Of a DNA stretch of 64,000 bases, positions 9,001-12,000 are shown one piece after another. Each line of letters begins with the position of its first letter. The stretch's first letter is position 1. Position numbers: made by a program. This DNA comes from Escherichia coli (GTDB taxonomy: Bacteria > Pseudomonadota > Gammaproteobacteria > Enterobacterales > Enterobacteriaceae): assembly GCF_003334335.1 (NCBI RefSeq), contig NZ_QOWQ01000001.1. The stretch is one strand, 5' to 3'.

Positions 9001-12000
9001 GCCCATTTCCAGGCATTAAATTCTGCGCCAATGGCGGCAAACTGACGGTTGCTGTCGGAGGTGAAACCGCTGGCCGGGGTCAGATCCACATCAAATGCGG
9101 TGGTGAACATCGCGTTGTGCCAGGAGACACCGGCCGTCACCTGCGGGCGGATCCTGAAGGTTTCCGTGATACCGTTCACTTCTTTTGTCTCAATACTACG
9201 GGGGATCAGGTTCTGTGCGACCAGTCCCAGCGTCCAGTTGTCATCCAGGTCCGTACTGGCACCGATGTCGGCGTTGATGCCATTTTTCGTGTTGTGGTAG
9301 CGGTCGCCTTTGAAGGCGCTGCTGTCATAATTTCTGACCAGCACGTTGTAGTTGAACAGGTCGACGCGCTGGAATTTGGGGGGGAAGCCCAGAGACCATT
9401 TCTGCCCGGCCGTTTCCAGTTCCGTAGCCAGAGCAATACCCACATCAGTGATCAGTGCCGCGCGGGCAAAGGCCTGTGATGTCAGGCGGCTTTTGTCCAC
9501 CTCCTGCCCGGTGCTGTTTGCCACCTCTTCCAGGTAAGTGAGGTCAGCATCAGAGACTTTACCGTCGACACTGACGGTGCCGTGTGATTTAACCATCAGT
9601 GCGGCAGAGAGGCGATCACCGGGAAGGGCCGCCACAGCAGAAACGCCCAGCTGTGCGGCGGCATGTGTGTTACGGAAGTCCCGGAGGTGTTCTTTCAGGC
9701 GTGCGGCAGCCTCAGGAACACCGTGGTTACTTTCGATGGCGCGGTCGAAGGCCTTCCACTCATCACTGATCCGGTCGGCGTTGTCGGTGATATTATCCGG
9801 ATTGGAGAGCTGCGCGCCGACGGACGGAAGCAGGATGCTGGGCTCATGCGCGACGCAAAATCCACGATGTATATATCAGTACTAAAAGCGCGACGGCGGA
9901 AGAAGCTCTGAAACTAATCGGTGAACTGTACGCCATAGAGCACGATATACGCGGGTTACCGGTGTCTGAACGCCTGGCGGTCAGGCAAATGCAGAGTAGA
10001 CCGCTCCTGACTTCCCTGTATAAGCTGATGCAGGAGAAAGAACACACGTTATCGAAGAAATGTCGTCTGGGAGATGCGTTCCGGTATATCAGGAAGCACT
10101 GGGCTGCGTTGTGCAACTTCTGTGATGATGGCCTGGCTGAGGTAGATAATAATGCAGCAGAAAGAGCGCTTCGTGCAGTCTGTCTCGGGAAGAAAACTTT
10201 TTCGAGGATCACTCATTCCGTGTCTGACTGCTTCAGGGTTTAATTTTGCTTCTGCTGACTGAATGATGATTGGGCAGCAAGTGCAATATCCCACATAAAT
10301 CCAGTCAACTCACGAGCCACCGCCGTAATGGCTACTTGTGATTTTTTCCCTTTTGCTGTCAGAGTTCGGTAACGAGAACACAATCGTTGTTGAGCTTTCC
10401 ATGCAATATCTTTGGAATATTGTGTTACAGAGTCCGGTCGGTAATATATAAGCCATGCTCCAACTTTTGCAGGTGTACGATAAGACCAGGCGGCTTCGTA
10501 AAGCAGACGTCTCAGTTCGCTGTTTCCAACTTTTGTTATTCCTCTGGGACGAATACTGTTTCCACTGGAATATTCACCTGGCACCAGTCTGAGGTGTACT
10601 GGCAATAGCGGACACTACCATTTGTTCTTTTTTTAAGCAGTCATCTGATGATATTTTTCCCTGAAGGCTGCCGGGGAGATATTCCCCAGACGAGAGTGAC
10701 GACGCTGACGATTGTAGAAAATCTCAATGTATTCCCGTATTACTGAGATGGCTTCATCCCGGTTATTAAAACGATAGTGGCTCAGGCTCTCATTTTTCAG
10801 CGTTCTGAGCCTCTGATTCTTCCGGACAGAAGATAATCATGTCGGTATGAATGTTATAATTAAGGACTGTGCAATAATAGCCATTCCATTCAGCCATCTT
10901 ACGCTCGAAAACGATCGGTAAGATGGCTACTCACCATTCCTGCTCTAAACCTGACGCCTCTCAAGACTATTATAAATAGCCTCAATCTCACCCTTCAGGT
11001 TATCACCGCAATAAACCATTGATGTATCGTATCGTTCATATCGCGCTTCCCGTGTCGCACTAAACCAGTTGAACGATCCCACACACAGCAAACCATCATC
11101 ACCAATAACAATTTTGCTATGAACACGGTTTACCAGCTTTGTAGCAATACCCAGCGCATTCAGTTTCTCCAGCGCCGCTTTAAAGTTCTGCTGCTTCTCT
11201 TTTCGCTTCTCAAAATCATTATGTTCAGTGTTGTAGCTTCTGTCAGTGACTATCGTGACGTTAATTCCACGTGAACACGCCGCAATCATGGAATCAAGAA
11301 AACCGGTTTGCTCCAGCCTTTGCCAGGTCAGCCATGGAGAAATTATCGTGATGTGTTTACTGGTATTTTCAAATGTCTGATTCAGGAAATTATCATGTTG
11401 CTCCACACCATGAAGTGTGTAGATTTTGGTCCCGGCGGTTTTTAAATCCTTACGCTCTTTATAATCAAAAGAGAGCGCATTCTTCTCTGACTCAAAGAGG
11501 TATTTTGCCAGTAATCCCCGTGGCGATGAGGCTGGCTGGACCTCAAACAGGTCCATATCGCCGAAGACCAGAAAACTGTCCTTCGCACGGGAGACTGCAA
11601 CATTCAGCATGCTGTTATCGCTATCAATAAACCCGCCGTCTTCATGTTTTGAATAGACTGGCGAGAATATCACAATCGCTCTTTCCGCTCCCTGAAGAGA
11701 GTGCACGGTGCCCACTGTGAGCGACTTTTCATTCGTGCCTGTACTGATACCTTGTTTGCCCAGCACCTGTTTGATAGTGGATACCTGAGCGCTAAAAGGC
11801 GTCACAATACCGACAACTTCATGAAGCGATTTACCGTAATGCGCTTCAATATTTTGCTGGTTCTCTGCCAACCAGACCGCTATCGTTTCAGCCTCAAGCA
11901 AATTATATCGACTTCCACTACTTGCCAGCTCTCCTTTACCATCAATATGGAGATACCCCATTGCGGGCATTAAATTGCTCTCTTCACGCCCTCTTTTAGG

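Follow-up and report, generated by a model that had tools for sequence, protein, structure and literature searches.

The stretch of Escherichia coli DNA analyzed here is a 64-kb window, to which all coordinates refer, and genome counts refer to a set of 5,426 complete E. coli genomes. In this window, a block of insertion sequence (IS) debris separated a TraF-like outer-membrane protein pseudogene (8835-9840, minus strand) from mkoC (10945-14460, minus strand), an intact gene for a 1171-aa helicase-PLD protein that borders the debris but lies outside it. The debris, which we call the scar, was confirmed to comprise three incomplete transposase pieces from three IS families lying back to back. 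It was followed by the last 29 bp of a yjgX-like phosphoethanolamine-transferase gene (10808-10836, plus strand; stop codon TAA at 10834-10836). Its structure, flanks and distribution point to an inherited deletion scar at the join of two tRNA-Phe island modules.

The first piece (9823-10196, plus strand) was internal to an IS66-family tnpC, corresponding to nt 1050-1423 of a 1614-nt gene, with DNA identity of 98.1% to the tnpC of locus L003 and about 94% to ISEc43; its translation matched NF033517 at E 4.7e-39, over positions 224-347 of the 387 in that profile. As tnpA, tnpB and terminal repeats were lacking and both ends were internal breakpoints, it represented a fragment and not an element. 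The second piece (10197-10589, minus strand) belonged to ISEc45 of the IS110 family and covered nt 845-1237 of this 1446-bp element, with 99.7% DNA identity to the copy in locus L004 and 98.0% to that in locus L013 (NF033542, E 3.7e-19, profile positions 257-338 of 343). It kept the last 116 recombinase codons and 43 bp of the right end, and had lost the first 844 bp (the left end and the N-terminal 261 codons) together with the terminal 209 bp of the 252-bp right end; its open reading frame (ORF) reached 10605 only by reading through into the end of IS600. The third piece (10590-10805, minus strand) was the last 216 bp of IS600, of the IS3 family, identical (100%) to the IS600 right end in locus L005 in a match over 10587-10805 (NF033516, E 7.5e-13, profile positions 322-369 of 369). 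It retained 57 C-terminal orfB codons and an intact terminal inverted repeat, the sole genuine IS terminus left across the scar, while orfA and orfB were incomplete and the second terminus was gone. All three NCBIfam matches fell under the whole-protein cut-offs, being partial, and where identical copies of the locus occur, RefSeq already marks the three as partial pseudogenes.

In 8400-11100, a repeat search detected neither terminal nor direct repeats at the borders of the fragments. A composite transposon has two copies of one IS on either side of its cargo, with intact outer ends; the scar had three families and one terminus. Since no further ISEc45 or IS600 DNA was present elsewhere in the window, the missing parts of both elements had been lost and not inverted nearby. 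An earlier note on this DNA, made from the sequence alone, had described three back-to-back IS66, IS110 and IS3 fragments, none complete, and both the NCBIfam and the DNA matches bore this out. The order and strands that it gave held, although its boundaries were 16-31 bp off. The IS66 piece, placed at 9843-10215, started at 9823/9834 and ended at 10196; the IS110 piece, placed at 10240-10605, spanned 10197-10589 as ISEc45 DNA; and the IS3 piece, placed at 10628-10836, spanned 10590-10805 as IS600 DNA, with 10806-10836 not belonging to IS3.

Four junctions (J1 to J4) joined the pieces to each other and to their neighbors. J1, between the TraF-like gene and IS66 tnpC, fell in an 11-bp microhomology (GACGGAAGCAG; 9823-9833) when the window was compared with strain NCTC9112 (locus L006) and locus L003. 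Because both partners were broken internally, J1 is an illegitimate join, of the kind that deletion or recombination leaves behind, and no product of transposition. At J2, between IS66 tnpC and ISEc45 (10196/10197), the tnpC breakpoint lay within 1-2 nt of the usual ISEc45 insertion site, and ISEc45 started 209 bp inside its right end; other copies carry those 209 bp. A query spanning this junction could not tell the scar from normal copies; the 209-bp difference was confirmed. At J3 (10589/10590), an exact IS600 terminus, TGAGGTGTACTGG..., stood against the interior of ISEc45, which is what a plain insertion of IS600 into ISEc45 would leave. At J4 (10805/10808), where the interior of IS600 met the transferase tail, two unmatched bases (TG) lay in between at 10806-10807 and there was no microhomology.

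To the left of the scar, the block from sigA to the truncated TraF-like gene (4614-9840) was 97.9% identical to NCTC9112, with homology ending at 9840. The TraF-like gene of NCTC9112 is whole (1203 bp, 400 aa; Pfam TraF_2 PF13729, E 1.2e-70), and beyond it come a gene for a 273-aa hypothetical protein, a shufflon-type integrase, pilV and type IV pilus genes. The context of the TraF-like gene was the same in FDAARGOS_1300 and APEC E19035, where the autotransporter was different or truncated, and the inspected TraF-like copies of 95-99% identity lay in an intact conjugative-element context. The window copy was without the first 197 of the 1203 bp, a loss of 66 codons that includes the expected signal peptide; in RefSeq, too, the gene is partial, with its N-terminus missing.

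To the right, 10808-15229 was 97.7% identical to the leuX island of Combat2C1 (locus L002), where the order is integrase, helicase-PLD gene, a convergent 1500-bp transferase gene, an outer-membrane protein gene, a hypothetical gene and pap genes. At the transferase tail, scar-bearing DNA was 98.7% identical to Combat2C1. In 666 of the 5,426 genomes, at least 80% of a query for the intact mkoC/transferase junction was covered, and the scar genomes aligned to this query only as far as the breakpoint; the transferase gene has therefore lost 1471 bp at the scar, together with an unspecified amount of DNA beyond it. The 108-bp ancestral spacer between the two convergent genes (10837-10944) was retained, including a terminator-like hairpin on the minus strand (10936-10916) just past the mkoC stop codon. 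K-12 MG1655 has a phosphoethanolamine-transferase gene that was about 91% identical, over about 700 bp, to the one lost at the scar (9109-10608 of locus L002); we take this K-12 gene to be yjgX of the leuX-associated KpLE2 element. If this is true, the int-mkoC-transferase module would be a widespread island 'head'.

As the left and right flanks have different intact relatives, the scar sits exactly at the seam of two modules, in agreement with the suggestion in the earlier note of a breakpoint between island modules. The same note had raised the possible loss of neighboring genes, including the 5' end of the outer-membrane protein gene, and this was found in the 197 bp missing from the TraF-like gene and in the reduction of the transferase gene to 29 bp. 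Its further idea that the helicase-PLD protein might have lost a partner was not supported. This protein matched the PADLOC profile PDLC03924 MkoC at 1690 bits, with residues 1-1169 aligned to positions 1-1135 of 1136, an end-to-end match that identified it as MkoC of type II Mokosh. Type II Mokosh is said to be a single-gene system, and the comparison with islands lacking the IS fragments, which the note had recommended, showed that the helicase-PLD gene was originally flanked by the convergent transferase gene, its neighbor in the 666 intact genomes. No lost partner is therefore indicated, as the system has one gene and a convergent neighbor is no operon partner. The mkoC gene was unbroken in both the window and FDAARGOS_944, and is annotated as frameshifted in O104:H4 strain 2011C-3493.

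The stretch 9600-10950 occurred at 99.8-99.9% identity in 44 of the 5,426 genomes, enteroaggregative E. coli (EAEC) 55989 and O104:H4 outbreak strains among them, and TraF-like copies at 99% identity or more also numbered 44, equal to the number of scar carriers. All four junctions were identical in two genomes with the island at different sites: O104:H4 2011C-3493, with the island at pheU, between dicD and dsbD, and FDAARGOS_944, with the island at pheV. Given these identical junctions at pheU and pheV, the scar arose once, before the island reached two tRNA-Phe sites, and has been inherited with it since.

The pairing of IS66 and ISEc45 at J2 had parallels outside the scar. In all six sampled loci (L004 and L009-L013), the 1446-bp ISEc45 split an IS66-family tnpC at one site and in one orientation, about 190 bp before the tnpC stop codon and opposite to tnpC. 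These loci were on chromosomes and plasmids, involved ISEc22-like, ISEc43-like and other IS66 types, and represented four or five distinct flanking contexts, with shared flanks at two chromosomal loci. In 607 genomes, at least 80% of a 200-bp query across the ISEc45 right end and IS66 was covered, and the 3' part of ISEc45 was present in 611 genomes; the lone sampled match outside IS66 was in an hsdS gene of NC101. Because nearly all ISEc45 copies share the tnpC site, the IS66/ISEc45 pair in the scar is no random juxtaposition, and the junction began as a targeted insertion. In ISEc45 the left end measured 60 bp, the right end 252 bp and the subterminal inverted repeats 10 bp; the element so fits the IS1111 group, whose features are a short left end, a long right end and subterminal inverted repeats, and whose bridge RNA is located in the right end (PMC11208160). 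An Rfam scan of the complete ISEc45 gave no match for a guide RNA, and k-mer matches between its noncoding ends and the IS66 target were only 6-7 nt, an uninformative length. Uninterrupted tnpC genes of ISEc23 and IS682 aligned with the target and also with the final 17 nt of the right end of ISEc45 (query positions 84-177; 3086-3179 of locus L013). Because this alignment spans both, the end of ISEc45 resembles the target sequence that it displaced, a resemblance that may relate to donor and target recognition. In the literature found on ISEc45, or on IS110 together with IS66, the target of ISEc45 was not named, and only resistome and mobilome listings surfaced.

We propose, with a probability of roughly 0.88, that the scar is a nonfunctional remnant of a nested IS stack and marks a deletion fusion of two unrelated tRNA-Phe island modules. 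From the fragment identities, the junction sequences, the intact flanks of relatives and the site preference of ISEc45, all of them observed, we infer the following order of events and quantity of lost DNA. An ISEc43-related IS66-family element would have resided between the integrase-mkoC-transferase and the sigA/TraF-like modules, and ISEc45 would have entered its tnpC at the usual site and in the usual orientation. IS600 would then have entered ISEc45, leaving the right terminus that survives at 10590. A deletion from the interior of IS600 to a point 29 bp short of where the transferase gene stops could have created J4, taking the rest of IS600, the 5' part of ISEc45, the 3' end of IS66 and an unspecified amount of island DNA. 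A second deletion, via the 11-bp microhomology of J1, may have fused the interior of IS66 tnpC to the TraF-like gene and removed the 5' part of IS66 and the first 197 bp of the TraF-like gene; in relatives, the DNA upstream of the TraF-like gene consists of a hypothetical gene, a shufflon recombinase and type IV pilus genes. A third deletion, of 209 bp, would have stripped the right end of ISEc45 at J2.

Several points weigh against this history. An intermediate form, such as an intact IS66::ISEc45::IS600 nest in the island, was found in none of the 5,426 E. coli genomes, so that the order of events and the deletion sizes were not observed, and the collections searched did not include Shigella, the genus with the related SHI-1 island. 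Many of the 607 ISEc45-in-IS66 copies may share ancestry, with independence shown for only the four or five distinct contexts. The 209-bp loss at J2 halts within 1-2 nt of the terminus of ISEc45, a place where a random deletion is unlikely to stop. The two J2 sites share a 7-bp repeat, AAGAATT, but clean slippage between its copies predicts a join that exceeds the observed one by 3 nt, and the J2 step is for this reason not fully explained.

On an alternative account, J2 and perhaps other junctions were made by transposase action instead of random deletion: the ISEc45 recombinase might have cut at the right-end boundary and rejoined at an internal pseudo-site, with loss of 209 bp, and IS600 might have caused an adjacent deletion into ISEc45. 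The end of the 209-bp deletion within 1-2 nt of the ISEc45 terminus and the exact IS600 terminus at 10590 are both in its favor, but the internal site showed no similarity to the left-end junction of ISEc45, the event was seen once, in 44 related copies, and plain insertion of IS600 accounts for J3 equally well. J1 and J4 are internal to IS elements and are therefore not transposition products. We regard transposase action as an unlikely origin of the junctions. Similarly doubtful is a broader conjecture, that ISEc45 is an RNA-guided IS1111-group element specialized for one conserved coding site in IS66-family transposase genes, so that one IS family disables another, and that the flush loss of its guide-encoding right end in the scar is the footprint of recombinase-mediated self-deletion.

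The remaining alternatives were less probable still. An assembly artefact of repeated IS sequence would be a natural suspicion in an IS-rich region, where misassembly is frequent, but the same junctions recur in 44 independently finished complete genomes, several O104:H4 references included, and the chance of such an error is negligible. That constancy, across 44 genomes and both tRNA-Phe sites, could also be read as the mark of one known composite or mosaic mobile element, complete and with undamaged neighbors. Yet every piece is internal or one-ended, with one genuine IS terminus only, no transposase is intact, and both neighbors are truncated relative to intact relatives; because the flanks are equally about 99.9% identical, the recurrence reflects common descent. 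Related genomes in which the three fragments formed one known composite element with nothing missing would have refuted the earlier note, but the 44 scar genomes shared the identical losses, and a composite element is hardly credible. Retained function, whether as a hybrid ORF, a guide RNA, or a promoter or terminator for sigA or mkoC, might be suggested by the ORFs of 93-122 aa in the scar, the candidates being a 121-aa ISEc45 C-terminal ORF (10240-10605) and a 93-aa IS66 ORF, and by the location of the scar between mkoC and sigA, both on the same strand. However, the right end of ISEc45, the published place of IS1111-group bridge RNAs (PMC11208160), is mostly deleted, and Rfam scans of the complete ISEc45 and of the scar returned no credible family, with two weak matches (Mu-gpT-DE, E 0.049, and a microRNA) far below gathering scores and no match of note to the scar. 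Promoter-like sites were below the number in shuffled sequence, with zero in the scar; the mkoC hairpin and the region upstream of sigA (8475-8834) are ancestral DNA outside it; and sigA itself carries a nonsense mutation in the window. The scar thus offered no evidence of any function and contained no intact gene, making a functional role very improbable.

The wider setting of the scar was a tRNA-Phe island. The single tRNA gene in the window was a tRNA-Phe gene (16372-16447, minus strand). To its right were core ORFs of 235 and 731 aa, and because these match yqgA and speC of the near-identical FDAARGOS_944 locus, the attachment site in the window is pheV. The island lay to the left of the tRNA gene, with every gene on the minus strand, and included a P4-type integrase gene (int, 14912-16174, minus strand) and sigA (4617-8474, minus strand), both placed by window ORFs and annotated identical loci. 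With tRNA-Phe attachment, a P4-type integrase and sigA, it matched SHI-1/she-type islands in these traits. It extended past the left end of the window, and iha and iutA are farther left in FDAARGOS_944. Compared with the intact sigA of FDAARGOS_944, the window copy had a TGG-to-TAG change at 6127, in codon 783 of 1285, yielding ORFs of 782 and 466 aa; since this nonsense change splits the ORF, the toxin gene is probably a pseudogene in the window strain. In FDAARGOS_944, the island integrase is split by ISEc11 (25310-28014 of that locus) and speC by ISSso6 (31641-33721), both IS110-family elements, whereas the integrase and speC were unbroken in the window. A second cluster of IS debris occupied 1-3600 of the window: an IS66-family element on the minus strand (1-1463), 93% identical to locus L003, crossed the window start; an ORF at 1902-2585 had ISL3- and IS21-like transposase matches; and an IS66 tnpC remnant of 304 aa lay at 2672-3586.

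The scar is an ordinary inherited seam, already known and annotated as RefSeq pseudogenes, and its importance is small beyond bookkeeping. It pins the exact boundary between a defense module (int-mkoC) and a virulence module (sigA), along with the genes lost there, in an island common to EAEC 55989, O104:H4 outbreak strains and others, and dates the module fusion as older than the spread of this island to both tRNA-Phe sites. As a marker of lineage for the island, the sequences of the four junctions could be of use. The only mildly new point is the near-exclusive placement of ISEc45 in IS66 tnpC, unstated in the literature searched; this preference provides a natural example for work on RNA-guided targeting by the IS110 family. 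No description of the IS66'/ISEc45'/IS600' scar was found in the literature searched.

The tRNA-Phe islands of E. coli and Shigella consist of modules flanked by IS elements (PMC11537424; PMC7545054), and 55989-type islands have a putative DNA helicase gene beside int (PMC11537424). The island studied here resembled the SHI-1/she pathogenicity island, 'PAI pic/set' and the GI-pheV mosaics in its tRNA-Phe site, P4-type integrase, sigA and IS remnants between modules; it differed in that pic/set lie beyond the window, and the same island copy was found at pheU in O104:H4 and at pheV in the window. ISEc45 shares site-specific insertion into mobile elements with IS1111-group members such as IS4321 and IS5075, which enter Tn21-family terminal repeats, and those that target attC. 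Its target, however, is a coding stretch of the transposase gene of another IS family, and the copy in the window is a dead fragment that lacks both ends. IS600 and the ISEc43-type IS66 were close to annotated copies (100% and 94-98% identity, respectively), but only 216 bp and 374 bp of them are left here. The conjugative elements of NCTC9112, FDAARGOS_1300 and APEC E19035 have a type IV pilus and a shufflon, and one of their ends bears an autotransporter and a TraF-like gene. The window has the sigA-TraF' block, 97.9% identical to NCTC9112; in contrast to these elements, the window block ends inside the TraF-like gene, and the hypothetical gene, shufflon integrase and pilus genes are absent.

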